Source of the DNA: a virus
Direction: 5' to 3' (one strand)
Length of the DNA: 64,000 nt
Virus record (IMG/VR): IMGVR_UViG_3300025853_000041
Location: 41,182 to 105,181 of that record
Part shown: piece by piece, positions 11,282 to 32,409 of the stretch
Layout: the number at the start of each line of letters is the position of its first letter
Numbering within the stretch: position 1 is the first letter of the stretch
Program-made: the position numbers and the translations under genes
The notes under the pieces: model-generated
The model's input: the letters and a program-made list of their open reading frames with translations, nothing else
Told to the model about the DNA's origin: nothing
Databases searched by the model: none

Positions 11282-12793
11282 ATGAAAAAGAAAAAAGTTA
11301 AGAAATATCAATTGGGAACAGGAAAAAATGGTGTTGTAAGACATTATATTGAAAGTCCTGCTGAAACTATGGTAGAAAATGATATCATGATGGCAAAAGC
11401 AAAAGCTGAAGCTGCTGACAATCAGTGGGCTAAAGGTTTAGACTTGTTTGGGAATATGGCAATCCAATATGGAATGTCTCAAGCAGGAGGCTTAGGTGGT
11501 GTTGGACAAGGAATAGGAGAAGGAATGGGAAATATATTTGGAGGAAACAACACAAAAGGTATGATGGAAATACCAGGAGCAGTGGTTAGTAGAGCAGCTT
11601 TTGGAGGAACAGCAGGAGAAGTGCCAGTGGAAGTTGAAGGAGATGAGGTAGCAGAGTTGCCTGATGGTGGACTAATTGATTTTGAAGGTCCTTCACATGA
11701 AGATGGTGGTATAAATACAAATTTACCAGAAGGAACAGATATTTTTTCTAAGAGGATTAAAGTGAGTGGAAAAACAATGGCTGAGAGAAGATTAGCCAGA
11801 ATGAAGAAGGAAAAAACTTTAACAGACCTATTAAAAGGGTCAAATTCTCATGATGTGGTTCTTAATCAAACTCTAAAAAGAACACAAGAAAACAACGCTA
11901 TGGAACAAGAAAAAGATAAAAGATTACAACATGTGGTAAAACTATTACATGGAATGACAACTGCTAAAGTCAACCCAGGAACCCCTCAAGAAGCTAGTTT
12001 TGGTACATTCTTTAAAGGACTTTTTGGTGATTCAGAAACAGGAGAAAAAGGAAGTCTGAATTTCACAGGAGGAGATTTAGTAGGTTTGGCTGGTACATTG
12101 TATTCAGCATTTGAACCTATGAAAAACACACAAGAACAAAGAGCAGGAGATACTCCTAATATAAATGCTTTTAAAGATTTTGGTGTGGACGCTTTAGATA
12201 CAATGGAGTCAGCAAAAAGTTATATAGGAAGTGTACAAGATAATGCTTTACAAGATATTGAATCTAGTAGAACTAAAGCTACTCTACAAAACAGACAATC
12301 AGCAAGAGGTGTAAATGTTATGAGAGCATTAGACACAGCTACTCAACTTAATGCTGACAAAGCAAAAGGGGATATCTATGATAAGTTTGCCACACAAATG
12401 ATGAACATGCTTACAAGACAAGCAGGTTTAGAGAATGAGCAAGATTTACAAGTAATGACAGGAGAGCAAACTAGAGATGATGCTGATAGACGAGACAGAG
12501 ATAATTACTACTCTCAATTAGCTAAAGATATTGCAAGTAAAGGACAAGGCATTCAACAAGCAGGAAAAATGCTTAATCAAAATAAAGCAAATACTGTTTC
12601 TGAAAATTTACTTAATCAAACTTCAAAAAATTATAGAGTTGATAGTAATGGTAATATCCTTCTTAAAAGTGGAGATAGAGAAATGAGTGTAGAAGAAAGT
12701 TTAGCTTATGCACAATCATTAGGTTTTAAGACAGTAGAAGCATACCTTGAAAGTCTTTTACCTGGTGCAACAACTGAAAAAACAACTGATTAA
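11282..12793 (+). CDS. Internal virion (cargo/ejection) protein 1
   Basis: VEVEGDE...GPSHEDGGI motif typical of crAss-like cargo proteins; Gly-rich segments; no Cys. Confidence 0.65.
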   Translation: MKKKKVKKYQLGTGKNGVVRHYIESPAETMVENDIMMAKAKAEAADNQWAKGLDLFGNMAIQYGMSQAGGLGGVGQGIGEGMGNIFGGNNTKGMMEIPGAVVSRAAFGGTAGEVPVEVEGDEVAELPDGGLIDFEGPSHEDGGINTNLPEGTDIFSKRIKVSGKTMAERRLARMKKEKTLTDLLKGSNSHDVVLNQTLKRTQENNAMEQEKDKRLQHVVKLLHGMTTAKVNPGTPQEASFGTFFKGLFGDSETGEKGSLNFTGGDLVGLAGTLYSAFEPMKNTQEQRAGDTPNINAFKDFGVDALDTMESAKSYIGSVQDNALQDIESSRTKATLQNRQSARGVNVMRALDTATQLNADKAKGDIYDKFATQMMNMLTRQAGLENEQDLQVMTGEQTRDDADRRDRDNYYSQLAKDIASKGQGIQQAGKMLNQNKANTVSENLLNQTSKNYRVDSNGNILLKSGDREMSVEESLAYAQSLGFKTVEAYLESLLPGATTEKTTD

Positions 12794-14659: not shown

Positions 14660-17600
14660 ATGAACGAAGAAGATATCTTACAACTCAAATTAGCTGGGTA
14701 CATAGTAGAGAATGGGAATATATTAAGTCCTGAAGGTCAGTTTTTATCTAACGTAGAAGTTAATGGTAAAGCTTACAATTCTCTTGATTCAGAAGAAGAT
14801 TATAATTATCTTAAAGAAGCTGAAGAAACTATTTTATCAGATAGAACTGCTGCTGAAGAAGCCAAAAATCAACAAAAAGAAAAGATTACTCAATATGAAG
14901 CAAATCCTTTAATTTTTGCTGACCTTGATGATGTGTCTGATGAGGTGTTTACTGAATATATGGACAAAAAGGCTGAAGATAATGAGCCTGGAGCCTATAT
15001 GCTTAAAGATGATTTGATTGCTGAAAAGAAATCAGAAGCTATTCAAGAGGACCTAGTTAATAATTTAGAGACAGGTGAGCCATTAAGTACAAACACAATC
15101 TTCACTGAAATTCAAAAAGATACTATGTTTCAAGACAAAGGTATTAATTTTGATATTTTAAAAGAAGTATTACCTACTGAGAATAGAATAAAAGAAATTG
15201 AAAACGTAGATGAAGATGTGGACACTATACTAAAAGGTGTCACATCTGAAAAAAAGGATAAAGATAGAAATATTTTTAGCAAGTTAGGAGATTGGATGTG
15301 GGATGGCATATATAGTGGTATTGCTGCATTGACTCCTGATGGTGTTGGAATGGATGATAAAGACCTTAAAAAAGAGTATGTTGGGTTAAATGAAAAAAGA
15401 AAAAATCTTTTAAAACCTGAGATTGCTAAAATAAGTAATGTCTTAAAAGAAGAATTAGATTTTTACAATAAAGACTATGAAGAAAATTATTCCAATGCTG
15501 GTGCTCTATTTGGTAGAGAAGACCAAGATATTAATAATTATGTTAGACGACAATTACAATCTAAAATAAATTATTTAGACTCTTTTGTTGATGATGCAAA
15601 TGTTTATAACTTAATCAGTGAAGAATTTTTAACTGATGTGGGAACACTTGGGTTAAGAGATGCTCATGATGCTGTTAAGTATCGTGCCCATTTAATAGGT
15701 AAACTAGAGAATGGAGAAGAACTAACACCTACTGAACAAAGAGCTGTTGAGAATCTAGGAAGAATAGATTTATTGGGTGGTTTAGATTTAGAACAAAGTA
15801 CATTATATAATTTAACTTATGGTGCAGGACATTCTGTATCTTATTTAGCTGGTGGTGTCTTTGGTAGAATGGCTGGTAAAGTTGTTGGTAAAGGCATTGC
15901 CAAAGGTGTTACAGGAGCTGTTGGGTCTAACTTTGCAAGTAAATTAGCCACTGCAGGTGGTAAGCAAGTTGTAAAAGAGTCTATTGGAAGAACAGTAGGT
16001 TTAGTAGGAGATATTGCAACTCAAGCTACACTACATACTTCTAATTTAGCAAATACTATTGACAATTATTATGGAACAGTTCATATGGGCTTTGATGAAG
16101 ATGGTAATAAAGTTCTAGAAACAGATAGAATGCAATATGAATCTGTTCAAAGAGATATAACTTTATATGAAGATGCATTAAATAGTGGACTTGTTCCTGA
16201 AGACCAACTAGAAGCAACAAAAAGTAATCTAAAATACCTAAAACAAATGTTTAGTGAGATGAAAGAGCCTCAAACAGTTGGAGGTGCTCTGGCTAAATCT
16301 TGGACAGGCAACTTTGTTGAATCTGCTTCAGAGGTGGCAACTCTTAATGTTCTTAAAGGTATTCCTAATAACCTTGTAACTAGAAAACTAACTGAAGGAC
16401 TTAGAAAAACACCTACTTGGAAAAATTTAGTTTCAAAGACAAAATCTTTCACAGCAGGACCTACTAATATTCTAAATAAAATAAATAAGCCTTTCCCTAA
16501 AACTATGGAAGCTTTGAACAGCTTCTCTGGGAATAGATTAGGAAATGTCACTATTGGTGGCAACTTAGAAGAGGCATTAGAAGAAGTTGCAGTACAGGTA
16601 GTCCCAGTTTGGGGAGAAACTGACAAAGAAGCTGCAGCAAGAAAAGATGAACTACTTCATGGAAGTTTCTATTTCAATGTTTTAGCTCAAGCTCCACTAC
16701 AAAAAATAATTATGAGCCCTGTTGGTACTGCCATCAGAGGTAAAAATTATATAAATAGGAAATTAGATGCAGATTACAGACAAACTAAAAAGAATTTCAA
16801 TGAGTTAATGAAAGACTTACAAAAAGGAGGTCTTGAAAAAGAAGAGTTTGATGAAATACTAATGGCTGCAGGAAGTGGAAACTTTAGCCAACTAGAATAT
16901 AAGAACAAGATTAAGGAGTTAGATGAAAGAGGTGAAACTGTACAAGCTAATAAGATTCGAGAAAATAGAATCTTTAATGCAGCTTTTATGGCAATGAAAC
17001 ATGGTAAAGGCAAAGAGTTCATTTCTGCTTTAGAAAAATCTTTAGCTAAGCAACAAGCACCAACTACAATTCCTACACAAAAAGAGGCAGCTACTATTGC
17101 TGCAACTATACAGGCTATTACTGAAGCAAAAGCTGTTCAAAAAAGTATGAAAAAAGTTGAAGGGCTACCTAATGCTGAATTTATTTTGAACTTAGAATAT
17201 AATAAAAGAAACTTAGAAAAGAATAAAGAAGGTATTAGAGCAGAATTGTCTGCTATTGATGCTTCTGAGTTACTAAGTGATGAGCAGAAAGAAGGGCAAA
17301 GACTTATGTGGGATGGTCTTATGGAAGATACAGAAAAAGGTCTTAGGGTTTTAAATAAAAAGATAGAAGGTGAAAAATCACCTACAAAAATAAAAAGATA
17401 TAAGGATGAGGCTTCTATGATGGTGTTTGCAAAACGTCATTTAGAACAACAGAAAAAAGAAGGAGTAGAACAAATGAGCTTAGAGACAGCAATAGAAGAA
17501 GCTTATGGTAAGTCTATTTCTAATTCGAGTAAGAAGAAAGTCCTTAAAACAATGGAAGCAGTAGAAATACTACAAATAGCTCAACAAGAAGCTAAAGAAA

Positions 17601-20600
17601 AAGCTGCTCCAATAGTAGAAGAACCCACAGAAGAGGTTAGCCCTGAGGACAGTCCAGAGACTGTTGAGGGGAATGAAATCACTGATACTGGCATCCCAGA
17701 GGCTGCACCTCCTGTGACTACAACTCCATTTGGCACTGTCTCAACAGATAGAAACCAAGAAGTTGAAATGTTAGCAGAGGAATTCAAAGAAGCAGTATCA
17801 GAAGATATGGAAACTATTGAAGGTATGATTGAAGATGCACCTGAAGCTCCACCTATGGACATTTTTATGGACATGGATGAAGATGAGATGATTGAATCTT
17901 TAGGAGGTAAAAATCAAGGTAATCCTTTAGTAAGTATAGGTAACAAGATGAAAGATTTTGTTGCAAAGGCTAAGAAAACCACAGGTAGAGATGTAACTTT
18001 TGAAGATTTCTTATTAGCTGTTGCTGGTAGAGGACCAATATCTGATTACAAAAGCTACTTAACCTTATTTGCAAATGCTTGGAGCAATGCAGGTTTAGGT
18101 CAAGTAAATGCTCAAGAAAAGTATATAGCTGCAGTTGAGATGGCAAACCTACTTAATGAAAAAATTGAGATGGCTACCAATGAAGTTCTAGAAATATCTC
18201 CAGAGCAAACTAAAAAATTAGAAACAGAAGAAAAAGCTTTAGGTTTAACAACCACTGAAACAGAGGTAGTTAATCGTGATGCTAATGGAATTCCTGTTGT
18301 TACTCAAAAAAGAGATAATGTCTTTGACGAGATTTACAAGATTAATAATGCTGCACTTGAGTTTACAGAAGAAGAAGTAACTGACCCTGAAACAGGAGAG
18401 GTATATATTCGTAGAACTACTGCTCCTATTGCAAAAAGAAATGAAGAAGCAGGCACAAATATTAATAATCTTGTACATCCTGACAAAAATAATAAAGGAG
18501 ATATTGTCACTGTTCCTAAACCTGTCCCAGAAGAGATAGGAAGTATTATGGTTTCAGTGAGAAATGATAAAGGAAGAACAGTTAAAAGAATATCTTTTGC
18601 AGAATGGGCTGAAGAGAATAGAGGAGACATGAGTATGGAAGAATTCTCTGAAACTGATGAATACATTGCAAAAGTTCCTATGTTTTATGTAGATAGTGAA
18701 GGACAAAAAATAGGCTGGGTAGCAGAGGCTGACTGGTTTAACCCTTCAACTGAAGGAGAAATGTCTGAAGCTGACAGAAACAACATTAAAGTAAGTAACC
18801 TTTCTGGAACTGAATTAGCTGAAATCGAAAGAAAAAAGCAAAGTGCTCTTTCATTAAGAAAAGAAATCTTAGCAGGGAATGTAGAACAATTTGAAATAGT
18901 TTCAGATGGTACTTCATTTGTTAGGTTATACTTCAAACAAGATGAAGAAGGTAACACTATACCTCCAAAACCTTTATCTGAGGTAGCTCCTGATAGTCAG
19001 ATAGCAATAATGGGAGTTAATGGTCTGCATTTTGTAGATGGTCAAACTCAAATTAGTACTGATGATATAATCAATTGGGGAGACAGTGATTCTGGTTTCT
19101 CAAGAAAAGTAGAAAAAGTTTCTGCTGATGGGAAATCTAAAAAGTTTGTTGTAGAGAATGCTAATAAAGCTGTATATCTTCAACATGTAGCTACTGTCAA
19201 TGGAGTTAAAAAATATGAGATTAGTCTCACTCAAAGACAAAATGATGAAAATGGTGCAGGTGTACCTAAATCAGTAATTGAGACTGTAAGAATTTTGGCT
19301 GCTGCTAATACTATTTTAATGAATGATACCTTTAGTGTTAAAAAACCTGGTAACATTCCTTTCATTGCTAAGGATAATCCTTATAGAATGACAAAAGAGC
19401 AAGCTCAACAGATTCATGATAAAGTTAAAAAAGAAACAGGACTTTCTTTATCTACATCTCTAAATGAGTTGATAGAAGGACTTGTTAACATTAAAGATGC
19501 TAAGGGAGGAAAAGTGAGTAGTGGTCTTACAATAGCTAGTCTATCTAACAGGTGGGACAAAGATAATGGTCATGCTGTTAAAGATTCACAGTTTGTTGAG
19601 AATACTAAATTTGGTAGAGACACACATTTAGGTAAAATTGTATCTATTGCTAAAACAGATAATGGACAATTTGAAGTAAATGTTATTGCAGAAAGTTATA
19701 TTGACTACTTAAAGGACACACATAAGACTAATATGATGGGTTACAATGTAGGCACAAGTGATAATCCTGTATATACTCCTGCTATTCAACAAGCAGTTAG
19801 AATCAAGCCAATCAGAAAAGTAAAACCAGTTAATGAAATTGTAGAAGAAAACACTACTGCTCCTACTGTTATACAAAAAACAGAGAAGATTGTAGAAGAA
19901 GTTAACAATATGGATGAAATTGCTGAGGTTTTGGATATTGAAGTGGAAACCAAAACTGAAGAGCAAAAAGTTGCAAGAGAGGCTGCTTTAAATAAAGCCA
20001 TTGCTACTATTGAAGCTCTTGGAGGTCAGGTAAACACTGTTGAAGAAAGTGATGAACTTATTGTTTCTGAAATGACTTCAGCACAAAATGTTACTGATTC
20101 AATATTAATTACTGAAGGATTAACAGTAGAACAAGAAGAAGACCTTATTGGTAGTCTTGCTGCTGAACTGGCAGATAAAAACGCTGATTATAAGCAGATA
20201 ATGATGAACCTAAATAGTGATTTAGCTCATGCAAATACTGCTATTACTAATTCTAAAAATGATTTAATTGATTTTAAAGGTAATCCTACTGTGGATGCTG
20301 TGTTAAATTCTTTAAATACTTTGAGCACACAAATTCAAAAAGTAAGAGAGAATAGAGATAGGCTGTTAGCTGAAGCTTCTGATAGAGGCAGAAGAGACAG
20401 TTTTGTTGTTGATGTTTATGAGGAGACAGAAGGAATGTCTGAAAAAGATTATGGTAAAAAAAGTAATGAAGCATTACCAGTAGATAAACTGGGGACTGCT
20501 TTGAAAAGAATATTTGCTAAAGTAGAAACAGGGCAAAAAGGATTCTTAGGTAGAAATAAAATTGCACCATTTAAAAGTATGTATGATACTGTTTTATTAA

Positions 20601-23600
20601 CACTATCTGAATCTATTGGAGCAACAACAGACTTTAAAGATATGATGAATATCTTAAGAGAATACTCTGATAGTAACTATTGGATGAAATCTTTAATTGA
20701 AAAATTAGAGGCTTCTGATGAACAAATACAAAATGCTTTTGTTTATAACATGCATGCTCAAAAAGTTACAGCTTATTTTTCAGGTTTTACTCAAAACAAT
20801 AATACTTTGAATGCTACATTTTATGAGAGTAATTCAAATTCTGCAGTGAGAGCCATTAAAAGAAACTGGCAAGATAACTTTAATAGAACTGCATTAAATG
20901 ATATGGGTCAATTGAACTTGGAAGAGGTTAATAGGCTATACAATGAATACTTAAGTTGGGGTAAAAGTCCTGAGAAACAAGATTCTGACACTTTAAGATA
21001 TTGGTTAGACAACTTTGGTATTCGTTTATCAGAGAAGACCATGGAACAGCTTATGTTAGGAGAACTAAGGATTGTAAAAGATGGTGTAGCAGTTAAGCAA
21101 CCATTTAAGGCTTTATTTGAGCATTCTGCAGGTGTATTCAATATTTTGAATGAATACCTTATAAAAAACAAAGATGCAAAAGGAGACTTAGGTTTCAGCA
21201 CAAACACAAAATTAAATCCTTTCAGTGATATGCACTCTTTATTAGAGCAATTAGCATATCTGGAAGCTAAAAATAATAATAAATATGCCAGTACTACAAG
21301 AAGGTCAGGTGGTAAAACTTTATCTGAAGTAGAGAATATGACATATTTTTACCAACAAATAAGAAAACTTAAAAACTCAGTATTGAGTAAAAACAGTTAT
21401 GTTGATAAATTAAGAAAAACAAGCTTTGCTCAAGATTCTTATATGTTGAGAATGCTTAAAGAAGACCCTGAATTTGTTGAAGCTTTTGACCATGGTTTGA
21501 TGGACCTTATGGCATTGAAAGATATCTATAAAGATTCTCCAATGTTTGCAAGTATAGAAGAATTAAGTGAAGAAGATTATCAATTAGCTTTAAGAATTGC
21601 ATTCCAAGCTAAAGGTAGAGATGCAAAAATGGACAAGAAAACTGGTTTTAAAATCAGATTATCAAACATGAATACTCTAACCAATTCTGATAAAGGTAGA
21701 ATGGTAATGTTGAAAACTTTTGTCTATGATTTTTTCAGAAGTGAACAAGCTTTTGATAAAGACGAAAAGGGGAACTTCGTATTTTCTGATAATTTGAATG
21801 AATTGATGTGGAATGATTATGTGATGCCTGAATTAAGAAGAATGCACACTTTCATTAATTCAAATCAAGTGACTGATATCAAAGGATATTCAGAGGGAGC
21901 TGTTAGATTTAATGTGTTCCCTGTCCTTAATACTATTACAAACAAAAAAGGGCAAACTATAAAAGAAGCTATTGAAGCTGGAGCCAGTTTAGAACAAATT
22001 AAAGAACAGTTTAAAACTGATGCCACTAAAGAAGTAGAGAAAAATACTTTTGCAGAAGCTGAAAAAGTTTCAACTAAAAGAAAAACTAATAATGATGCAG
22101 AATATTTGGCAGGAAGAAAAGTTGGAACTCCTGAAGAAAAAAACTTTTTAGCTGAAGTTGATTTTATTTTGAATTCTAAACTGAGTTCAATGAATTATAT
22201 GCAAATGGTTGCAGGAGACCCAGCATTATACTATAAATCAAAAGCTGACAGTACCTCCAAAAATTTAAAAGAGGCTACTAAAGCTTCTATGCAAAGTGCT
22301 ATTAACCTTGGTAAAAGGATGGCAGCAATGATTGCACCAGGAAAGAATTTAGCCAACTCAAAAGGAAACAAGTATATTCAATTATTTATGGATGACATAT
22401 ATGGGTCAGCTTCTAATTTAGAAGACATTATAGGTTGGCACTATCCTGTTGAAGAGATTGATGAGATGAATCCTGAAACAAAGATGTCTTACAGAGCAAT
22501 GATTAAAGTTTCTGTATCAGGAGACACTAAATATGACAAGATATTGAAAGCACAGTTTGATACTGTTTCAGATTTTATTGGAATTGAATCTACTGATGCT
22601 CAAGAATACTCAAGTGTTAAAGAACATCTTTATATCCTTGAAAAGCAAGGACGTTTACCTCAAGAGACAATTAATGAAATTCGTGAAAAGATTGATATGC
22701 AGCATAAATTTTACCACACTAAATCTAATGTGGGTAAACCTATTCCTGCTGAGTTGTCTTTGAGCACTATAATTAACAGCAAAAATAAAGCAATTGATGG
22801 TAAAACACAATTAGAGATTTTATTACAACCTATTAAGCCTGTTTATACAGGTAGTATGTTAGAAGGAGATGTGAATAGAATAGTCTATATAAAAACCTCA
22901 TCTTTCCCTTTAATACCTGAACTGACTGCTGGAACTAAGTTAGATAAACTTAGAGTACAAATGGAAAGAATAGAGCTTGAAACAGGAAAAACAGTGAGAG
23001 CTGTACACCATTCAGGAGCTAAAGTAGGTGGTTTTACTGCTGATAAAACTATAACTAACTTTGATGATGTAATTACAGCAGAAAATCATATGGTCTTAGA
23101 TAGAGAACATTTTAAAATTCAGCAGGATGTTCCAAGTAAAGCTGGAAAACCTCAAGATGATTATGTATCTATGGGTACTCAAATCTTTAAACTTTTATTT
23201 GGAGATGGTATTGATACTATGGAAGGGTTTGAATTTGATGGAGAACCTATTACAGGACAGGAACTTAAAGAGAAATTTTTCCAAACATTCTCAGGAATGG
23301 TAAATATGAAAAGAGGAGATTTATTAGAATCTTTAGGTTTGGACAAAAATATGGTTCCTAAAAATCTTGCAAAATCAAAAGAATTATTACAGAAACTACT
23401 TATTGCTGAAGCTAAGAGTAGAGGTTTTGCCAAGCAGGACCTTAAAGCTTTAGAGTTAGTAGGAAAAAATAAAAACTTTAGATTGCCACTATGGGCTTCA
23501 GGAAACAGTAATAAGTTTGAAGCAATGTTAAATGCATTAATCAATAATAAAATCTTCAGACAAAAGATTCCAGGTAACAAGTTTGTTACTGCTTCTGAAG

Positions 23601-26600
23601 GAAACATGGAGCTCCAAGAGGGGATTGAAGGATACCAACATATGAGTAAAGTAATTCGTATTGGAAACTATAAAGGAGGAGAGCTACAAAGTACAACCAC
23701 AAAAGATGGTAAACTACTTAAAGCTCAAGTACTTATGCCTTCAAGAATAAAATTAGGAGGAAGATTAGTTGATATCTTTGACGACTTTATAGAAGAAACT
23801 GGAGAGGGTACTTACATTAAGTTAGTAGATGGAGCATATCAATTGAAGACTGAAATGATGGATGAAAAACTATTAGAACAGTTTGTATTTAGAATCCCTA
23901 CTTCTTCTCATGGTTTAGGCTCAGCAGTTGAAATTGCAGGATTCCTTCCACCAGAGTCAGGAGATTTAGTTATAACTCCTAAAAGTTTTGTTGCTCAAAT
24001 GGGTCAAGATTTTGATATTGATGCTTTAACAGCATATCAATATAATCATGTAGTGAGAGAAGATGGAAGAATTGAAAAATTAACTCAAGAGAACAAAGAT
24101 GTATATTTAGAAGAAAAGAAAAGACAAATTGCTGATTTAGAACAATCTATCAGACAAAATGGTAAATATGGTCCTGAGACTGCAATATTATTTAATGATA
24201 TTTTAGCTTCATTATTAGGAGAAGAAGAAAGTTTAGCTTTCAATATGTATCCTGAAACTGAAGAGGAATTACAAGAAGCTATCAAAAAGCTTAAATCTGA
24301 GATTCCTAAAAACATGGATAAGAAACTATTAGAAAATGACTTTATTCAAATTCATATTTCTGTATTCTCTAATCCAGCAGCTCAACAAAAAATAAACAAA
24401 GCTTTATCTATGGCATTTGCTGAAGGACAGGCTGAAGATATTGAAGAACTTATTCAAAGTCTTGAGGAAGAGGGTACGACATTTGACATGTTGTCTCCTG
24501 AATATCAAAGAGTTAAAATGGATAATGGTTCAACAGGGCAGGTTGCTATTGGTATTTACGCCAAAGCAATTACCTTACACAGTAATATGCAACAAGCTTT
24601 AGTAAAAGGTGGTGTGCATCTTACACGAAAAGTATTTAAGAATGGTAAGCTAAAGAAAACAAGAGCTGGGATTGCAATTGGTAATCTCTACTCTTCTGGA
24701 AACTTTGGTACAGATATGACAATATCAAATTCTAAGAATAAAACTATTTTAGGTTTAAGAAGAGCTATCTCAACAGTGTTAGATGAAAGAGCAAATACTG
24801 CAACAGATAATGAAAAAGCACAAATTTTGGGTAAAACTGGTTTGAACCATAAGAGTGCAATTGCTGTTGATAGTATGTTGGCTATGTTAGGTTTTGATGC
24901 TGAGCACCAAATTATAGGGAAAGCATCAGGTTATACTGCGACAGAAAAACCTTCAGAATTTAATGAGGATAATCCATTTCATAGAAGCAAAAAGATTGCA
25001 GGTGGTAAAACAATTTACTATAAAGAATATTCTATACCTTATCTTCTACACTCTCAACCTATTGTGAAGGAATTCTTTGCTTTACTTGGAGAGAAAGAGT
25101 CGATTAGTGCTGAAGAATTCTCTATGAATCCAAAAGGAGAGGTTATACAAGAACTAATTCTTAAGTATGGTGGACCAGAATATACCATAGTAAATGGAGA
25201 GTATGGTATAATGATACCTGCACAAGATGGCACAGATAGAATGTACTTTGAATCTTCACAAAGAAATGAAGAGTTTACAGGACAGAGATTAGCTGACAAT
25301 ATAAAATTAGGAGATAAGGCAGACACTATACAACAATTAGAGATTCTTGCTTTATATACTCAATTAATGACAGATGCTGATGGGATTAAAGAAGCTAACA
25401 AACATGTTGACCTGGATAACTTAGGAAAATCAATGTGGGAGTCTTCTACAAAAGAAGAGGAATTTAGAGAATATTTTACAAACCTAGAGGCTAATTCTAA
25501 TCTTGAAGGTATTGAAAATCTTGTAGGAGAATTCTATGAGAGATTTGAAGTTGAACAGATGGAAGAGGCTGACCAAGAGGGATTATTATATTTAGGAGAT
25601 AATATCTTCTTAAAACCTACTACTAATCAGGGAGTTATGATTGGCTCAGCTTTATCTTTAAGTGCAAATATCTTTAATGGGTTATTCCCTGCCAAGAGTG
25701 TGTACTTAAATAAAGTGGTTAATAAAATTCTTGCAAATAGCAGAATAAACCCCAATAATTCTTTTGCTGTTATTAAGGCAAAAGAGAAGATTTTTCAAGA
25801 GGTTAAAAAATATTTGACAAGTGCTGAAATACTTGGATTATTCAATACAAATGCTAAAGAAGTCAGAGAAAATCTTTTCATTGACGTTCCTGGATACAAC
25901 ACATCCTTAAGCAGTTACACTGATTATGTCTTAGCAGCAGGCTTGAAGAAAAATGAGAGTTCAGAGTATAAAGCTGGTTTAGATAAAGTGAGAGGAAACT
26001 TATTCCTTAACCTATTAAATTTCCAATATGGAGAAAATGGTAAACCATCTTTAATAACTTTCAACAATCAAGAATCTTTTGAAGCTAACCAAGAGGCTAT
26101 CTATACAGCATTTAAAGAACTTATTGCTGAAGATATATCTCTTCCAAGAATTATGAGAAATGGTAAATCAGAGTATTACTCAACAAGACTCTTGGCTCAA
26201 GAGCTTATAGCCTATTCTTATTCTTCTGGAGGTGTTATTCAAGGAGCAGTAGAATTTCATAAATTCTTGCCAATTGAATATTTAGATGATATGGTCACTA
26301 AAACTGCTCAAGGAAAAGAAATGACACCTTCAACAGTTCTTAGAAGATTCCACACACTATTCAACAATGATGATAATAATGTGGTATTCTTAGAAGAGTT
26401 TGAGCAACAGTTTTACCAGAACAATCCAGGGATGGCAGCTCAACATAAGTTGAAAAGAAGTCCTATCAAAGAAGGTGGAGAGTTTTACACTCTTAAATTT
26501 TCTACTGAAGGACCATTACCAACATATATTTCTGAAAGAGCACCAAATGTAGGAGGCAAAAACAGAAGTAAGCTTAAACAACATCAGTGGAAACTGTATA

Positions 26601-27739
26601 AATTAGATAGTGCATCTAAAGTGTACTATCCAATTACCACTTTAGGAACTTTTGGTATGGCTGAATATGAATATCAAAATCAAAACTTAACTTCAAGTAT
26701 GCTTGAAAAAGAGTTTGTCAATAATAAAGCTTCAGGAATAGAGGTTCAAATGAGAGAAGATGATATTTTAGGGGAACTTCCTGGGGAGGGCACACCTTTA
26801 GTTGATGCAGTTGGTATGATTGCCAATGGCGAGTTTGGAGATAGTCAAAGACTAATCCAAATAGCTAAGTTTATTGGACCATTATTGAAAACTCAAGACA
26901 CTCTTAAGTATAATCAAGGGAATGTATTTGCTAAAGGTAGTACAGGAAAGAAAACTGGGCAGGTTTCACTTAACACTGATAAAATTAGTTCAAGAGAAGA
27001 TTATGCAATTACACTATTGCATGAGTCTCTTCATAATTTGACTTCTAGGTTTATGACAGAATTCCTTAATGAAGATGGCACTGTTAAGAAAAATGCTCCA
27101 AGTGAAATGTACACTTTTATGAATGTTTATAATCAGTATAAAACAGAGTTAAGAAAACTTGACCCTGATAAGTATGACCAATTCATGAAAGAATTTACTG
27201 CTTACAAGGAAAAAAGAAAGAATAATGAATCTGTGAGACCTGATGGGTTTACTTTAAAAGGTGATGAATTTGAAGCTTATTATGCTATGGTAAATCCAAA
27301 AGAATTCTTAGCAGTAACCTTATCAAATGAGAATGACCACTTTAAAAAGTTAGCAAATCAAATGGATTATTATTCAAAAGTAAAAGGATTTAGAAACAAA
27401 TTAGTAGATATTATTACAAGAATCGTTAATATAATCGCTAAAAGAGAGAATTTACGAGAAAATTCAGTAGCTTTGCAGGCGATACAAGAAAGCCTGATGG
27501 TAGTTAAAGCTGGTTCAAAGTTTAATTACCAAGCTCAGAAAAGTATAACTCCAGACTTTATGCCTCCTGATATTAGAGATGACATCGGAATGCCTGCTGG
27601 AAGATTAGCAGAAATAGAGGCAATGATGTTACAGGATTCTCAATTACAAGAATTACCTGAAGGTTTCATGCCTGAAGGTGCTTCAGCAGGAGCTTCTTTC
27701 TTAAGTGTTACAGAAGACATAAATAACAAATGTAAATAA
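14660..27739 (+). CDS. Giant virion-packaged RNA polymerase polyprotein (two-barrel, crAss-type) with C-terminal zincin
   Basis: FRIPT...MGQDFDIDAL catalytic motif at 24008-24022; STDAQEY and QPIKPVY motifs; HESLH at 27020-27034 followed by a KEFLA motif. Confidence 0.9.
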   Translation: MNEEDILQLKLAGYIVENGNILSPEGQFLSNVEVNGKAYNSLDSEEDYNYLKEAEETILSDRTAAEEAKNQQKEKITQYEANPLIFADLDDVSDEVFTEYMDKKAEDNEPGAYMLKDDLIAEKKSEAIQEDLVNNLETGEPLSTNTIFTEIQKDTMFQDKGINFDILKEVLPTENRIKEIENVDEDVDTILKGVTSEKKDKDRNIFSKLGDWMWDGIYSGIAALTPDGVGMDDKDLKKEYVGLNEKRKNLLKPEIAKISNVLKEELDFYNKDYEENYSNAGALFGREDQDINNYVRRQLQSKINYLDSFVDDANVYNLISEEFLTDVGTLGLRDAHDAVKYRAHLIGKLENGEELTPTEQRAVENLGRIDLLGGLDLEQSTLYNLTYGAGHSVSYLAGGVFGRMAGKVVGKGIAKGVTGAVGSNFASKLATAGGKQVVKESIGRTVGLVGDIATQATLHTSNLANTIDNYYGTVHMGFDEDGNKVLETDRMQYESVQRDITLYEDALNSGLVPEDQLEATKSNLKYLKQMFSEMKEPQTVGGALAKSWTGNFVESASEVATLNVLKGIPNNLVTRKLTEGLRKTPTWKNLVSKTKSFTAGPTNILNKINKPFPKTMEALNSFSGNRLGNVTIGGNLEEALEEVAVQVVPVWGETDKEAAARKDELLHGSFYFNVLAQAPLQKIIMSPVGTAIRGKNYINRKLDADYRQTKKNFNELMKDLQKGGLEKEEFDEILMAAGSGNFSQLEYKNKIKELDERGETVQANKIRENRIFNAAFMAMKHGKGKEFISALEKSLAKQQAPTTIPTQKEAATIAATIQAITEAKAVQKSMKKVEGLPNAEFILNLEYNKRNLEKNKEGIRAELSAIDASELLSDEQKEGQRLMWDGLMEDTEKGLRVLNKKIEGEKSPTKIKRYKDEASMMVFAKRHLEQQKKEGVEQMSLETAIEEAYGKSISNSSKKKVLKTMEAVEILQIAQQEAKEKAAPIVEEPTEEVSPEDSPETVEGNEITDTGIPEAAPPVTTTPFGTVSTDRNQEVEMLAEEFKEAVSEDMETIEGMIEDAPEAPPMDIFMDMDEDEMIESLGGKNQGNPLVSIGNKMKDFVAKAKKTTGRDVTFEDFLLAVAGRGPISDYKSYLTLFANAWSNAGLGQVNAQEKYIAAVEMANLLNEKIEMATNEVLEISPEQTKKLETEEKALGLTTTETEVVNRDANGIPVVTQKRDNVFDEIYKINNAALEFTEEEVTDPETGEVYIRRTTAPIAKRNEEAGTNINNLVHPDKNNKGDIVTVPKPVPEEIGSIMVSVRNDKGRTVKRISFAEWAEENRGDMSMEEFSETDEYIAKVPMFYVDSEGQKIGWVAEADWFNPSTEGEMSEADRNNIKVSNLSGTELAEIERKKQSALSLRKEILAGNVEQFEIVSDGTSFVRLYFKQDEEGNTIPPKPLSEVAPDSQIAIMGVNGLHFVDGQTQISTDDIINWGDSDSGFSRKVEKVSADGKSKKFVVENANKAVYLQHVATVNGVKKYEISLTQRQNDENGAGVPKSVIETVRILAAANTILMNDTFSVKKPGNIPFIAKDNPYRMTKEQAQQIHDKVKKETGLSLSTSLNELIEGLVNIKDAKGGKVSSGLTIASLSNRWDKDNGHAVKDSQFVENTKFGRDTHLGKIVSIAKTDNGQFEVNVIAESYIDYLKDTHKTNMMGYNVGTSDNPVYTPAIQQAVRIKPIRKVKPVNEIVEENTTAPTVIQKTEKIVEEVNNMDEIAEVLDIEVETKTEEQKVAREAALNKAIATIEALGGQVNTVEESDELIVSEMTSAQNVTDSILITEGLTVEQEEDLIGSLAAELADKNADYKQIMMNLNSDLAHANTAITNSKNDLIDFKGNPTVDAVLNSLNTLSTQIQKVRENRDRLLAEASDRGRRDSFVVDVYEETEGMSEKDYGKKSNEALPVDKLGTALKRIFAKVETGQKGFLGRNKIAPFKSMYDTVLLTLSESIGATTDFKDMMNILREYSDSNYWMKSLIEKLEASDEQIQNAFVYNMHAQKVTAYFSGFTQNNNTLNATFYESNSNSAVRAIKRNWQDNFNRTALNDMGQLNLEEVNRLYNEYLSWGKSPEKQDSDTLRYWLDNFGIRLSEKTMEQLMLGELRIVKDGVAVKQPFKALFEHSAGVFNILNEYLIKNKDAKGDLGFSTNTKLNPFSDMHSLLEQLAYLEAKNNNKYASTTRRSGGKTLSEVENMTYFYQQIRKLKNSVLSKNSYVDKLRKTSFAQDSYMLRMLKEDPEFVEAFDHGLMDLMALKDIYKDSPMFASIEELSEEDYQLALRIAFQAKGRDAKMDKKTGFKIRLSNMNTLTNSDKGRMVMLKTFVYDFFRSEQAFDKDEKGNFVFSDNLNELMWNDYVMPELRRMHTFINSNQVTDIKGYSEGAVRFNVFPVLNTITNKKGQTIKEAIEAGASLEQIKEQFKTDATKEVEKNTFAEAEKVSTKRKTNNDAEYLAGRKVGTPEEKNFLAEVDFILNSKLSSMNYMQMVAGDPALYYKSKADSTSKNLKEATKASMQSAINLGKRMAAMIAPGKNLANSKGNKYIQLFMDDIYGSASNLEDIIGWHYPVEEIDEMNPETKMSYRAMIKVSVSGDTKYDKILKAQFDTVSDFIGIESTDAQEYSSVKEHLYILEKQGRLPQETINEIREKIDMQHKFYHTKSNVGKPIPAELSLSTIINSKNKAIDGKTQLEILLQPIKPVYTGSMLEGDVNRIVYIKTSSFPLIPELTAGTKLDKLRVQMERIELETGKTVRAVHHSGAKVGGFTADKTITNFDDVITAENHMVLDREHFKIQQDVPSKAGKPQDDYVSMGTQIFKLLFGDGIDTMEGFEFDGEPITGQELKEKFFQTFSGMVNMKRGDLLESLGLDKNMVPKNLAKSKELLQKLLIAEAKSRGFAKQDLKALELVGKNKNFRLPLWASGNSNKFEAMLNALINNKIFRQKIPGNKFVTASEGNMELQEGIEGYQHMSKVIRIGNYKGGELQSTTTKDGKLLKAQVLMPSRIKLGGRLVDIFDDFIEETGEGTYIKLVDGAYQLKTEMMDEKLLEQFVFRIPTSSHGLGSAVEIAGFLPPESGDLVITPKSFVAQMGQDFDIDALTAYQYNHVVREDGRIEKLTQENKDVYLEEKKRQIADLEQSIRQNGKYGPETAILFNDILASLLGEEESLAFNMYPETEEELQEAIKKLKSEIPKNMDKKLLENDFIQIHISVFSNPAAQQKINKALSMAFAEGQAEDIEELIQSLEEEGTTFDMLSPEYQRVKMDNGSTGQVAIGIYAKAITLHSNMQQALVKGGVHLTRKVFKNGKLKKTRAGIAIGNLYSSGNFGTDMTISNSKNKTILGLRRAISTVLDERANTATDNEKAQILGKTGLNHKSAIAVDSMLAMLGFDAEHQIIGKASGYTATEKPSEFNEDNPFHRSKKIAGGKTIYYKEYSIPYLLHSQPIVKEFFALLGEKESISAEEFSMNPKGEVIQELILKYGGPEYTIVNGEYGIMIPAQDGTDRMYFESSQRNEEFTGQRLADNIKLGDKADTIQQLEILALYTQLMTDADGIKEANKHVDLDNLGKSMWESSTKEEEFREYFTNLEANSNLEGIENLVGEFYERFEVEQMEEADQEGLLYLGDNIFLKPTTNQGVMIGSALSLSANIFNGLFPAKSVYLNKVVNKILANSRINPNNSFAVIKAKEKIFQEVKKYLTSAEILGLFNTNAKEVRENLFIDVPGYNTSLSSYTDYVLAAGLKKNESSEYKAGLDKVRGNLFLNLLNFQYGENGKPSLITFNNQESFEANQEAIYTAFKELIAEDISLPRIMRNGKSEYYSTRLLAQELIAYSYSSGGVIQGAVEFHKFLPIEYLDDMVTKTAQGKEMTPSTVLRRFHTLFNNDDNNVVFLEEFEQQFYQNNPGMAAQHKLKRSPIKEGGEFYTLKFSTEGPLPTYISERAPNVGGKNRSKLKQHQWKLYKLDSASKVYYPITTLGTFGMAEYEYQNQNLTSSMLEKEFVNNKASGIEVQMREDDILGELPGEGTPLVDAVGMIANGEFGDSQRLIQIAKFIGPLLKTQDTLKYNQGNVFAKGSTGKKTGQVSLNTDKISSREDYAITLLHESLHNLTSRFMTEFLNEDGTVKKNAPSEMYTFMNVYNQYKTELRKLDPDKYDQFMKEFTAYKEKRKNNESVRPDGFTLKGDEFEAYYAMVNPKEFLAVTLSNENDHFKKLANQMDYYSKVKGFRNKLVDIITRIVNIIAKRENLRENSVALQAIQESLMVVKAGSKFNYQAQKSITPDFMPPDIRDDIGMPAGRLAEIEAMMLQDSQLQELPEGFMPEGASAGASFLSVTEDINNKCK

Positions 27740-27744
27740 TAATT

Positions 27745-30700
27745 ATGGCAGGAATATGTAAAACTACCTTAAATGAGGTAAAGCAAAACTATGAAGAGAG
27801 AGTTGGTAAATATATCAATACTCTATATGGAAAAAGTTTTGAAGAAATAACTGACCCAATGAATCCATTACATAAAGTGAATGGAATCAAGTTTTTAAAT
27901 GTTAAAAAAGACAACATAAGTCCAACAACCTTCTCTATTGAAATTAATAGAGAGGGTTTAAACAAACTTATAATTAAAGAGACCTTCAGAATTGTTAATG
28001 AGGATGTTGATGAAACTTTTGACCCAACTCTTCCACCTGATGATTTTGAACTTCCTGAAGGAATGATGCCTGAAGGTGTCCCTAATATGCCTGGAGTTTT
28101 GCCTCCTGGTATGGTTCCTACTGCTAAGCCTGATTATCCTTACAGATTTGAAGAGACTTTAGCTCATAGAAGACAGTTAAAAGACAGTATTGACAGAAAG
28201 ATTCAATTGCTTCAAAATGAAGAGCTTGCAGAAGAGACTTCTAAACAACAATTGGAACAGATAGCTTATCTAAAAGATATTTCTGTAAAATTATTTAAAG
28301 AAATTCAATTCTTAGAAAAAAATGAAGGAGATGTAGATGCTTTTGTAGATAATATAGCCACAGATATTAAAAATACTATGGGGCTATTGAAAAACCCTAC
28401 AATTGAAAACTTAGAGTTTGCAAGAAAATATCTTCAAATGTTAGACTATTTTGTTAGAGATGATGAGACTGGATTCTTAAAGTCTTCTTATTCGACACTT
28501 AAAGATACTAATCCTGATATACACAATAAAATAGTACAGGCAAGACAAGGGATAACTGAGGCTAAAGATGATTTAGCAGCTAAAGTAAACCTTCAAGTAG
28601 AAGAAAAAATTAAATACCATATAAGACAAAAGGAAGAATATCAAAATGCTGATGAAGCTTTCTTAGAGAGTGAAGCTAAAAGATTATTCAAAGAGCAATT
28701 TGCTGAGCAACAAGAAATTTGGTATGGATTAAAGTTTTACACTAAAATGGAAGATATGGAAGAAGAAGGTAATGTTCTTGTTTCTGTAATTAAGAAAGCT
28801 TATGATGATGCTGTTAGAAACAATGGTAAAAAAGGTGTAGAAGACAAGTTGCTGGCAAAAGAAAAAAGTATAGTAAACAGACTGATTGAGACAGGAAATT
28901 ATGTAGGTAGCTTCTTCAAGAAGAAAGCCCTATGGGATGTCTTTAAAACAGATAATGAAGGGGAAAACAGATTGATTAATCCTTTTACTGTTTCTTGGCA
29001 AAAATTTAAAAAAGCTAATGAAGTTAAACAAAGAGTTATTTCTAAAATATTTTATAACTTTTCAGCAGAATCTTCTGATACTCAATTAGCTGCAATAGAT
29101 AAGCACTATGAAACTTTAAAGAAAGAGGCTGACTTTATAGATATAAGAAAACTGCCTGAGATAATTGCTAACAAAGATTTTGATGAATTTAAAGGCTCTT
29201 TTTCAACTGATGCAGAAGCTCTTGCTTACAGAGATGAAATAATTGCAAGGATTGGAAGAAGAGAATACAATAAACTTATAAAAGAAGCAGAAGACAATAT
29301 TAATTCTTTTATGATTGAAAAAGAAGTTAAATTTAATCAATTAAAAGATGAATATGGTGTTACAAATGGACAGGAATTACAGAATGCAATGTATAGAGCA
29401 GGAGCTGAAAGTGTCTGGAATTTCTATTTACAGAATTATTACACTAAATCTCCTTTTATCTTTGCAGAAAACCACTTTGACCAAGCAACTGGCAACAAGA
29501 TTGCTAAAGTCTATTTTGTTGAAAACAAACAATACCTTAATTATGATGCAAGAGCTAACTTAGAGTATAGTACTTTTATACCTAAGACTAAATATCATGA
29601 TAGCAAATTTGAAGAAAAGATTAAAGGAGACAAAGTTCTGCTAGAAGCTTGGGAGTTAATGGACGAACTTGTAGAATACAGTAATAAAAATGGGGCTGAT
29701 TATAATGCTGATACTGACTTAGATACAGATTTAGGACATGAAAGAAAAAGAACCCACTTATTAACTGATGTTCTTGGTCTCCTTTCTCCAACAGCTTTAA
29801 CGAACCTTAAAAAAATAATGAGGAGACTTACATCAACTATATCTGGTGAAGGTTGGGTTGATGAGACTGCTGAAGACAAAAGAATAGCAGGACAAAGGGT
29901 CACTACTGAGAAGAAAATTATGCAACAATTTAATAAATTGATTGCTATTGATGGTCTCAAGCAAGTAAACATGACTGAAGCTCAAATTGAAGAGTATAGA
30001 GAAAGAGCTTTAAATTTAGTTAATAAGCATGCTGATACTGAAAACCTATTACACAATATTATCACTTCCTCTCAAATGACAGGTTCTTTTAAAGCTAAAA
30101 AAGAAGTAGAAACATATCTACAATTTATAGCAAATCAATTAAGAGGAGCAAAAGGCAGAAAAGCTTTTACAGAAATAGTTGACTTTTTTATTAATAGAAA
30201 TTTATATGCAATTAATAATAGGGGTAAAACTGCTAAAGGCAAGTTTAGAAATGAGTTTGGAAGAAGGGTAAAACATTATCCACATGAACACGAAGAAATC
30301 AGAAAAGAAATCAAAGAGGGTTTGAAAGTTCTAAAAAAGAGAGCTAAAAAAGAACCTAATAATAAAGAACTTGCATTACAGATTGCTGATTTAGAAAAGA
30401 TGTATGAAGATGGAGTTGTATATGTAAATGGTAGAGATGTCACTGAAGCAATGTTATTTAAGGTAAAAGCTTTTACTGCTTTTGCTATAAATGGTTCAGC
30501 TCAGGTTACAAACATGGCTATTGCAAGTGCTAATGCTTATGAAGTAGATGGCAGACCAGGATTTTGGAAAGCTGGCATATACACTAGAAGTATGTCTTTT
30601 GCAAGAAAATATAAGAATATAAAATTAATTACCTCTAAGAAAATGCGAGAACAAAGAAAGATTATGGACCTCTTTCTAAAAAGTGCAGACTTAGTGCAGA

Positions 30701-32409
30701 ATAGTGCAAATGAAATATACAGGGAGCAATCATCCAGATTTGGTTCTGCTGTTAAAGAAGTTATTAAAAATCCAACTAATTTTGTTGGAGAGGTAGAGAA
30801 AACAATTCAAAAACCTCAACTATTAGCTTTACTTACAGAGGTTTTTGTTGAAGACAAAAATGGACAAAAAGTACCAGTTTTTGATGTAAAAAAAGGAGAG
30901 TTTCCTGCATTTACATTAAAAGATGGTGTGCTTGTTTTAAAGAAAGATTTTGATACAAAGAAAAATAGAGATACTTTTATAAGTTTTAACTCTCAAGAGG
31001 CAGCAAATATTTTTGGGGAGTCTGGAAAAATACCTAAAGCTATTGCTTATATAAATGGTGATTATCGTAATTCTACTACTTATTTAGCTGAAAAATATAT
31101 AGTGACTGCAATGACCTTAATGTTTAAAAGATGGGCAATTGCAACAATCTACAAGAAGGCTGATATTTACAAAAGATTAGCTAAAAATGACCAACATATT
31201 GCAGGGAATGGGTTTCAACTATTAAAAGCTGGTATCTTTGCCACAGCAGTAGGCTCAGCAGGACTTTTAGGTGGTGTATTCACTATGCCTGTTGTTATGG
31301 GAATAGGAATTGGTTGGTATGCTATATCACAAAGAAAAGCTTTTCTTAAGCAAATTCAAGAAGACCAAACTAAGTTAGAACAAATCTATAAAAATACTAA
31401 AGAAGTGCAACTAGCAGTTTCTATGGAAAAATATGTTAAGGGTAGTTTAACTATTGCAACTTTAGCTTTATCTACTGCAGCTCAAGCATTACTTAATATA
31501 CCTAGTAGGTGGATAGGAAGAGATGTCATAGATAGTGACAAACTTAAAAGTATGGTTTACATTGATAAGAAAAATCTACAACAAAAAGCAGTAGATGAGA
31601 TACAAGCAGATTTATACTTTTTGCAGACATCAACAGCTTTAGTCTTAAGAAATATGATTTATGGTGTGATGTTACATTCACTTTATTCTTTACTTGACCC
31701 AGGATTTGATGACGATGAAGAAAAAGAAGCATATAAAAAAGCAGTTGAAGCTGAAAAAGGTATTTATTTTGCAGGAGAAGATGAAAGAACTAAAATTCAG
31801 ACAGTTATGGAATATCCTGGACTTTCAACCTATTATGCTTTAAACAACATGTTGGCTTCTTTTGCTGAAGATATGTCCCTTACTGAAAATTGGACAGGGC
31901 TTCAAAGAATGGGTCAAGCAGGTAGTATTGAAGATGCTTGGAATGTTGGAGAAGAGCTTGTAAAGGATGAAGAATACGAAAGAGGTAAAAATGCAGGACG
32001 TAAAAAAGGAGTTGTACTTGCTGAAAGATATGTTACTCCTTCTGCTGTAAACTTATTTGGATTTGGTAACAAAATGGAAAAAGACTACAATACAGAGGGT
32101 ATAGTGGACAGGTCAAACAAAACTAATCTTGAGATAATGACTGATATCCATAAAGAAGCTAAGAAGGTAGCTAAGAAAAACCACGAAGAAGTGGTTAAAA
32201 CTTGGGCAGAATATGAAAGTTTACCAGAAGGAGAAAGAGCAGATTGGGTGAAAAAAGAACTCACCAAATTTTCAAGAAATGAATATCCATCATTAAAACC
32301 AGAAGATTTTAATAAGGATGGTTCATTAACTGCTGAAGGTATGGATAAAGTAAGAAATTATAGAGCTGGTATCCCTGAAGATTTATTGAAAGAGCTTAAA
32401 CTTGAGTAG
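27745..32409 (+). CDS. Large internal virion/ejection protein
   Basis: 1554 aa, helical, with C-terminal hydrophobic segments (GIFATAVGSAGLLGGVFTMPVVMGIGIGW); follows the vRNAP as in crAss-like phages. Confidence 0.65.
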   Translation: MAGICKTTLNEVKQNYEERVGKYINTLYGKSFEEITDPMNPLHKVNGIKFLNVKKDNISPTTFSIEINREGLNKLIIKETFRIVNEDVDETFDPTLPPDDFELPEGMMPEGVPNMPGVLPPGMVPTAKPDYPYRFEETLAHRRQLKDSIDRKIQLLQNEELAEETSKQQLEQIAYLKDISVKLFKEIQFLEKNEGDVDAFVDNIATDIKNTMGLLKNPTIENLEFARKYLQMLDYFVRDDETGFLKSSYSTLKDTNPDIHNKIVQARQGITEAKDDLAAKVNLQVEEKIKYHIRQKEEYQNADEAFLESEAKRLFKEQFAEQQEIWYGLKFYTKMEDMEEEGNVLVSVIKKAYDDAVRNNGKKGVEDKLLAKEKSIVNRLIETGNYVGSFFKKKALWDVFKTDNEGENRLINPFTVSWQKFKKANEVKQRVISKIFYNFSAESSDTQLAAIDKHYETLKKEADFIDIRKLPEIIANKDFDEFKGSFSTDAEALAYRDEIIARIGRREYNKLIKEAEDNINSFMIEKEVKFNQLKDEYGVTNGQELQNAMYRAGAESVWNFYLQNYYTKSPFIFAENHFDQATGNKIAKVYFVENKQYLNYDARANLEYSTFIPKTKYHDSKFEEKIKGDKVLLEAWELMDELVEYSNKNGADYNADTDLDTDLGHERKRTHLLTDVLGLLSPTALTNLKKIMRRLTSTISGEGWVDETAEDKRIAGQRVTTEKKIMQQFNKLIAIDGLKQVNMTEAQIEEYRERALNLVNKHADTENLLHNIITSSQMTGSFKAKKEVETYLQFIANQLRGAKGRKAFTEIVDFFINRNLYAINNRGKTAKGKFRNEFGRRVKHYPHEHEEIRKEIKEGLKVLKKRAKKEPNNKELALQIADLEKMYEDGVVYVNGRDVTEAMLFKVKAFTAFAINGSAQVTNMAIASANAYEVDGRPGFWKAGIYTRSMSFARKYKNIKLITSKKMREQRKIMDLFLKSADLVQNSANEIYREQSSRFGSAVKEVIKNPTNFVGEVEKTIQKPQLLALLTEVFVEDKNGQKVPVFDVKKGEFPAFTLKDGVLVLKKDFDTKKNRDTFISFNSQEAANIFGESGKIPKAIAYINGDYRNSTTYLAEKYIVTAMTLMFKRWAIATIYKKADIYKRLAKNDQHIAGNGFQLLKAGIFATAVGSAGLLGGVFTMPVVMGIGIGWYAISQRKAFLKQIQEDQTKLEQIYKNTKEVQLAVSMEKYVKGSLTIATLALSTAAQALLNIPSRWIGRDVIDSDKLKSMVYIDKKNLQQKAVDEIQADLYFLQTSTALVLRNMIYGVMLHSLYSLLDPGFDDDEEKEAYKKAVEAEKGIYFAGEDERTKIQTVMEYPGLSTYYALNNMLASFAEDMSLTENWTGLQRMGQAGSIEDAWNVGEELVKDEEYERGKNAGRKKGVVLAERYVTPSAVNLFGFGNKMEKDYNTEGIVDRSNKTNLEIMTDIHKEAKKVAKKNHEEVVKTWAEYESLPEGERADWVKKELTKFSRNEYPSLKPEDFNKDGSLTAEGMDKVRNYRAGIPEDLLKELKLE

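Follow-up and report, generated by a model that had tools for sequence, protein, structure and literature searches.

The polymerase cargo of crassviruses occurs either fused or split (10.1101/2020.03.07.982082, PMC10172136), and Drobysheva et al. expected fused forms to undergo cleavage that yields the individual proteins (10.1101/2020.03.07.982082). The cargo proteins have been found in virions of crAss001 (PMC10172136) and likewise, according to the notes in its record, in those of phi14:2, and crAss001 virions also contain many inter-subunit disulfides in the tail and portal vertex (PMC10172136). Terminal cysteines are mentioned neither in 10.1101/2020.03.07.982082 nor in PMC10172136. Here, we analyse the cargo genes in a 64-kb stretch of viral DNA (hereafter the window), which corresponds to bases 41182–105181 of the 105,181-bp IMG/VR virus record IMGVR_UViG_3300025853_000041, a record that is complete according to CheckV. 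Two adjacent genes of its cargo block encode a 4359-amino-acid (aa) virion RNA polymerase protein and a 1554-aa protein, each with a single cysteine located at the end that faces the other, and we argue that these two residues are probably joined by a disulfide.

Two further systems provide a frame for this comparison. In the Schitoviridae, the proteins of the ejection operon (N4 gp50–gp52; DEV gp71–gp73) show near-total suppression of cysteine, with no terminal exceptions (PMC11445570). A first-pass annotation of the window had described the virion RNA polymerase of phage N4 as free of cysteine. The published account says this of N4-type virion RNA polymerases, with passage through the oxidising periplasm as the accepted rationale (PMC11445570). 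In cyanopodophage A4, cryo-electron microscopy (cryo-EM) of the pre-ejectosome revealed a disulfide that links gp27 Cys1715 to gp26 Cys5 (PNAS 2025, PMC12002296). Full-text literature searches returned nothing on terminal cysteines in crassvirus cargo; the use of such a clasp at every crassvirus polymerase–cargo split appears to be undescribed in the searchable literature. One solved phage provides an example of this type of link. Few viruses are more abundant in the human gut than crassviruses, which are also common in seawater. They have to move ~700 kDa of protein, with an RNA polymerase among it, through a narrow tail, and the 2023 atlas did not resolve the capsid cargo.

Two cysteines at facing protein ends

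The plus strand of the window carries, in order, tail genes, a 1946-aa structural protein (phrog_15100) and four cargo proteins of 503, 618, 4359 and 1554 aa, followed by a strand switch. Across the 7034 aa of these four proteins there are two cysteines altogether. One is residue 4358 of the 4359-aa protein (14660..27739), which ends in NNKCK before its stop codon; the other is residue 5 of the 1554-aa protein (27745..32409), which begins MAGICK. Both are encoded by TGT codons, at 27731..27733 and 27757..27759, respectively. The 503-aa (11282..12793) and 618-aa (12796..14652) proteins, both also on the plus strand, contain none. A cysteine content of 1.1% would give 77 cysteines over this length (Poisson P(≤2) ~8e-31), and the chance of both observed positions, given one cysteine per protein, is ~1.5e-6.

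The first-pass annotation had described the two smaller proteins as cysteine-free, the polymerase and 1554-aa proteins as holding one cysteine each at these positions, and the neighbouring tail proteins as rich in cysteine. Counts over the open reading frames reproduce this picture (0 and 0 for the smaller pair), with no further internal cysteine in any of the window's four cargo proteins. The tail proteins upstream of the cargo contain 8 cysteines in 256 aa (3.1%), 9 in 303 aa (3.0%) and 18 in 1946 aa (0.9%), and most other proteins of the window contain ~0.4–3%. The cargo block thus shows cysteine suppression of the N4 gp50 type, with 2 cysteines in 7034 aa against roughly 1% in the other window proteins.

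We refer to the 4359-aa protein as a crAss-type virion RNA polymerase because its residues 2708–3307 match PDB 6VR4 (phi14:2 gp66, E 7.4e-15) and because it carries the DFDID catalytic motif of two-barrel RNA polymerases at residues 3117–3121 (24008..24022, plus strand). This motif is named in the abstract of 10.1101/2020.03.07.982082 and is invariant in 31 homologues (alignment A2). On this sequence evidence the protein is an enzyme of that type, equivalent to phi14:2 GenBank gp078 and gp077 in a single chain. The 1554-aa protein is the positional equivalent of phi14:2 GenBank gp076 and crAss001 gp49 and a homologue of FpV4 gp33. By homology to the phi14:2 and crAss001 proteins, the window's cargo proteins are probably packaged in virions.

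In the window, both cysteine codons lie within the heptamer ATGTAAA, and the two genes are 5 nucleotides apart after a double TAA. A nucleotide-level signal at the cysteine codons was considered and rejected, as the surrounding DNA differs among relatives, which use AATTGTAAC, AACTGTTAA and GCTTGTACA. Because the DNA context of the cysteine codons is not conserved, the constraint acts on the protein. A scan of positions 27400–28100 for promoters and terminators found nothing above chance.

Conservation of the terminal cysteines

Searches with the C-terminal region of the polymerase as query yielded 31 full-length homologues (4046–4845 aa, 24–66% identity). All 31 have a cysteine within the last four residues, in 29 cases at the penultimate position, and none has one in its first ten residues. 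Elsewhere these proteins contain 2 cysteines in their total of 135,817 residues (0.0015% non-terminal). The Cys4358 column is invariant in alignment A2, where mean column identity is 32%.

An exhaustive search for the downstream family with HMMER retrieved 83 representatives of 50% clusters, 67 of them full length. A cysteine is present at residues 2–5 in 63 of these 67 and is the sole cysteine of the protein in 55; the last ten residues contain none in any of the 67. Other cysteines number 25 in a total of 106,410 residues, and family fragments that lack the N-terminus have zero. In an alignment of 47 sequences (A3), Cys5 is one of 13 invariant columns. Lysine often flanks the terminal cysteine of both proteins. 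The first-pass annotation had named further internal cysteines, and a lack of terminal-cysteine conservation in homologues, as grounds for refuting its proposal; the proposal comes through both of these tests strongly. A blastn and peptide scan for close relatives using the window sequence itself gave no matches.

The degree to which internal cysteines are suppressed varies between lineages. Gut crassviruses (loci L009, L011–L013 and L023–L025) have 4–26 internal cysteines per cargo protein set, and all keep the terminal pairs, whereas a marine and freshwater set (the window, L001, L003, L005 and L006) has 0–4 in the cargo block. This difference may reflect anoxic versus oxic habitats.

Split and fused relatives

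Facing cysteines were found on both sides at 21 of 21 split junctions of the cargo block in 18 phages, which comprised members of the Steigviridae, Intestiviridae and Suoliviridae, Fipvunavirus, and uncultured marine and freshwater lineages, with cr3_1 and cr110_1 standing in as relatives of p-crAssphage (NC_024711). The split polymerase forms were taken from annotated phage records; a word-index search for shorter split forms of the polymerase N-terminal part returned only a 148-aa fragment. The fused junctions that could be mapped have no cysteine, and the outer ends of the block are never tipped with one.

In phi14:2, the polymerase protein is in two pieces, and a second pair of cysteines appears at the split. 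GenBank gp078 (1797 aa) has a single cysteine as its last residue (TIC before the stop), gp077 (the crystallised polymerase, 2180 aa) has cysteines at residues 3 and 2179 only, and gp076 (1421 aa) at residue 3 only. The same arrangement of three pieces and two pairs is found in crAss001 (gp47, gp50 and gp49) and in DAC15. Since crAss001 gp47 and DAC15 gp078 are encoded on the opposite strand to the other two cargo genes, gene adjacency is not required for the pair. In crAss002, cr3_1, cr271_1 and cr110_1, the polymerase is fused to the downstream protein, and only the first pair is retained. The architecture of the window is shared by FpV4, cr118_1, cr7_1, cr115_1, cr130_1 and four metagenomic loci, all of which retain the second pair. 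A unit of ~5,900 residues is thus a single polypeptide in some relatives and three pieces with two facing pairs of cysteines in others.

In P0073 (5901 aa), all pieces are fused, and there is no cysteine at either end or at the junction, which resembles a former stop–start gene boundary minus both cysteines; a peptide scan with this junction peptide gave no matches. P0073 has a lone internal cysteine at residue 2048, ~300 residues past the point equivalent to the phi14:2 gp078/gp077 split. P0072 (2901 aa) combines the final third of the polymerase with the downstream protein in one chain and starts with MAIKC at a new split site inside the polymerase. An upstream cysteine was predicted beforehand for its partner. 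The partner, in locus L014 (IMGVR_UViG_3300022822_000017), is homologous to window polymerase residues 1715–2999 and ends in GCLWQ, with the sole cysteine of its 1361 visible residues. Here, a 6-kb cassette of eight same-strand genes (L014 4079–10010), two of which encode paralogous tail-fibre-like proteins of ~475 aa (phrog_7809), interrupts the polymerase at about window residue 2995, and both polymerase halves are tipped with cysteine. Across these relatives, a new split brings both cysteines and a fusion removes both, as a bond between the two residues would predict, unlike independent roles for each terminus.

A probable tail-to-head disulfide

We consider a tail-to-head disulfide between polymerase Cys4358 and Cys5 of the 1554-aa protein to be the best reading of these patterns and of the analogy with A4, with a probability of roughly 0.7. 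The A4 signature is visible in the A-4L genome, where gp27 (1717 aa) has a single cysteine at position −3 and gp26 (1114 aa) a single cysteine at position 5, and it is kept in Pf-WMP3 and Pf-WMP4, in which the sole cysteines of the two proteins are at −2/−3 and +5. The link that the first-pass annotation proposed between the polymerase C-terminus and the next N-terminus is well supported by conservation, by the split and fused relatives and by this signature; the bond itself in this phage, the exit of the linked unit as one thread and its reduction in the cytoplasm are all steps that we infer.

The proposed mechanism would run as follows. An intermolecular Cys4358–Cys5 disulfide would be present in the assembled, released virion, having formed once the particle met oxidising conditions. 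Such a bond would join the two chains at their penultimate and fifth residues, respectively, giving a nearly linear unit of ~5,900 residues, and the clasp would hold the pieces in 1:1 linkage through packaging, storage and ejection. Because cysteines at −1 to −5 and +2 to +5 leave stubs of a few residues, the joined product would be topologically close to a fused single chain. The remaining cysteines would have been purged, as in other ejected phage proteins, so that only the intended bond could form. The last ~94 residues of the polymerase (27455..27736) form a variable, acidic, Pro/Gly-rich tail that is predicted with low confidence by AlphaFold2 (AF2) and that terminates in the basic NNKCK end; such a tail with its NKCK terminus would suit an exposed, reactive thiol.

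Threading is not the only use to which such a bond could be put. The A4 disulfide is part of a pre-ejectosome ring that is folded, so the crassvirus bond could just as well serve as an assembly staple. The more ambitious proposal, that the cargo block is a modular polyprotein clasped into a ~6,000-residue thread that exits the capsid lengthwise by way of the tail, with reduction in the cytoplasm freeing and activating the polymerase, is tentative and in our judgement rather doubtful. If true, reduction of the clasp would act as a redox timer of infection's first step, and clasp and peptide bond would have been functionally interchangeable over evolution.

Several points count against the Cys4358–Cys5 disulfide. 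Phage assembly occurs in the reducing cytoplasm, so the bond must form late, and gut crassviruses live without oxygen. The disulfides observed by cryo-EM could have formed during aerobic purification, and the capsid cargo of crAss001 is not resolved in the structural atlas (PMC10172136). No homology of A4 gp27 and gp26 to the crAss proteins was detected (hhalign of A3 against gp26, probability 0.13%; blastp E > 0.4), so the A4 precedent is an analogy rather than a case of family membership. The fused junctions of the cysteine-richer gut lineages are mapped too imprecisely to be called cysteine-free. Four of the 67 full-length downstream representatives depart from the rule: P0082, P0105 and P0108 lack an N-terminal cysteine at residues 2–5, and P0125 has one at residue 8; locus L020, which was found with P0082, is a 25% relative that obeys the facing-cysteine rule and leaves the P0082 exception unexplained. 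Finally, in crAss002 and cr110_1 the downstream cysteine falls at residue 3 only when translation is taken to begin at an internal Met, since the annotated starts place it at residue 35 in crAss002 gp33 (L010 16572–16670) and at residue 17 in cr110_1 (L023 16548–16592). Comparison with relatives suggests that the deposited starts are probably too far upstream and that the internal Met is used, giving MSC with the cysteine at residue 3, as in all relatives.

Alternative explanations

The alternative that fares best, although we regard it as unlikely, is that each terminal cysteine acts alone. It could form a bond to a cysteine-rich portal or tail protein, be acylated for membrane insertion, mediate a homodimer or, at the C-terminus, act as a cysteine switch on a zincin. 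The neighbouring tail proteins are indeed rich in cysteine and those of crAss001 are disulfide cross-linked; moreover, the HExxH motif is never more than ~250 residues away from a junction, and FpV4 gp30 has a lone Cys5 with no obvious partner. Independent roles are nevertheless hard to reconcile with the distribution of the residues across the block: the N-terminus of the first protein and the C-terminus of the last are never tipped, both cysteines are lost on fusion in P0073, P0072 and crAss002, and both appear at the new splits in phi14:2 and L014. Nor is there a signal peptide or lipobox ahead of the N-terminal cysteine (residue 2–5). A bacterial lipoprotein was rejected as a candidate, as a cysteine at residue 2–5 just after the start Met leaves no space for a signal peptide.

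A second possibility accepts that the two cysteines function as a pair but assigns them a different chemistry, namely a shared metal ion, a Lys–Cys N–O–S bridge or a thioether. The comparative evidence demonstrates pairing, not chemistry, lysine often adjoins both cysteines, and the polymerase has a conserved HExxH zinc site ~240 residues before its C-terminus. We still consider this improbable. A stable metal site would need more than a single thiol per chain, and neither cysteine has a conserved His, Cys or Asp next to it. The cysteine pairs also occur at junctions free of HExxH (phi14:2 gp078/gp077 and crAss001 gp50/gp49), and the only solved example of the signature is a plain disulfide.

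Protein ligation or trans-splicing of the split-intein type, with the cysteines marking a site at which the pieces would become a single true polypeptide, or as relics of such a system, is very improbable. Inteins typically have a cysteine directly after the splice junction, and split and fused forms coexist in the family, but the geometry does not fit: at residue 2–5 the downstream cysteine is too close to the start for a C-intein of ~35 residues, and the upstream cysteine is the last to fourth-last residue rather than ~100 from the end. Pfam searches of the two terminal regions gave no match, intein and Hint domains included, even at E ≤ 1, and virions of phi14:2 and crAss001 yield separate proteins (PMC10172136 for crAss001).

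That the cysteines are functionless leftovers kept by descent, a general possibility given that terminal residues are often weakly constrained, can be dismissed for practical purposes, as the cysteine columns are invariant where mean column identity is 23–32%, the flanking tails are otherwise variable, and facing pairs are found at three distinct junctions as well as in phages of an unrelated family.

Other features of the cargo block

The window has the gene order of the Crassvirales cargo block, with a muzzle-type tail protein, two smaller cargo proteins, the polymerase block and a large downstream protein, followed by replication genes on the opposite strand; the order in FpV4, phi14:2 and cr118_1 is identical. 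The 503-aa protein (phrog_15413) is the positional equivalent of crAss001 gp45 and FpV4 gp30, and the 618-aa protein (phrog_14670) that of crAss001 gp46 and FpV4 gp31.

Proteins related to the first cargo protein have cysteine patterns of their own. FpV4 gp30 (L005 2712–4508) begins MKKKC, and this cysteine at residue 5 is its only one and has no obvious partner at a C-terminus; its 503-aa counterpart in the window is cysteine-free. Pairs of cysteines 8–10 residues apart are present in such proteins or their neighbour in crAss001 gp45 (390/398), DAC15 gp080 (211/219 and 273/281), cr271_1 gp44 (337/347) and phi14:2 gp080 (369/378), and the window's protein has none. These pairs may represent small intrachain loops or a metal site.

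The polymerase protein also contains a zincin-like HExxH motif, HESLH, at residues 4121–4125 (27020..27034, plus strand), which is kept in homologues together with a downstream Glu at about residue 4215, ~240 residues before the C-terminal cysteine. In relatives the motif is found on different proteins: at residue 245 of phi14:2 gp076, 2157 of crAss001 gp47, 1814 of crAss002 gp32 and 1734 of cr118_1 gp14, always ≤~250 residues from a junction. An AF2 model of the last 450 polymerase residues has a core of moderate confidence, for which the best Foldseek match is a Bacteroides zinc peptidase at a weak E of 0.08. For the 1554-aa protein, an AF2 model of residues 1–1000 built from a 6-row alignment has a predicted local distance difference test (pLDDT) score of 46 and is unusable for fold comparison with A4 gp26.

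The two proteins of the window share a near-repeat, with ELPEGFMPEG in the polymerase tail (27650–27679) and, around residue 102 of the 1554-aa protein, ELPEGMMPEG (28048–28077). It was rejected as a conserved shared motif, as all that relatives retain is [ILF]xPEGxSAG in the tail of the polymerase and, in the downstream protein, LPPLPPxxMLPGTP.

Comparison with known systems

If confirmed, the clasp would fix the order and stoichiometry of the cargo, and it would explain why splitting, fusion, inversion or the insertion of a cassette leaves the cargo genes functional. The nearest counterparts of the window's proteins are phi14:2 gp67–gp66–gp65 (GenBank gp078–gp077–gp076; gp66 is PDB 6VR4) and crAss001 gp47–gp50–gp49, which are homologous, packaged, share the gene neighbourhood and carry terminal cysteines as in the window. 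The difference lies in the first two proteins, which are fused into the 4359-aa chain in the window, leaving one putative clasp instead of two.

The Schitoviridae resemble the crAss block in having a giant virion RNA polymerase with co-ejected proteins and in the severity of cysteine suppression (0.00075% in gp71 homologues versus 0.0015% at non-terminal positions in the crAss polymerase homologues). They lack terminal cysteines, however, and use a T7-like single-subunit polymerase, whereas the crAss block keeps exactly the junction cysteines and encodes a two-barrel enzyme. The disulfides of the crAss001 particle show that crassvirus particles use inter-subunit bonds of this kind, but those bonds are non-terminal and join folded tail, ring and hub proteins that are retained in the particle, not ejected cargo.

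Cyanophage A4 offers the closest parallel to the bond itself. Its gp27 and gp26 are, like the window's pair, consecutive, large, mostly helical packaged proteins, with cysteines at −3/+5 compared with −2/+5 in the window. A4 differs in being a T7-like cyanophage with no virion RNA polymerase and one junction only, and its bond is described as a stabiliser of a folded five-fold ring, with no split/fusion rule reported (PMC12002296). Were the disulfide confirmed in crassviruses, a lone cysteine at −1 to −5 facing a lone cysteine at +2 to +5 would provide a signature for linked ejection proteins in other phages, and this signature already recovers the A4 family.

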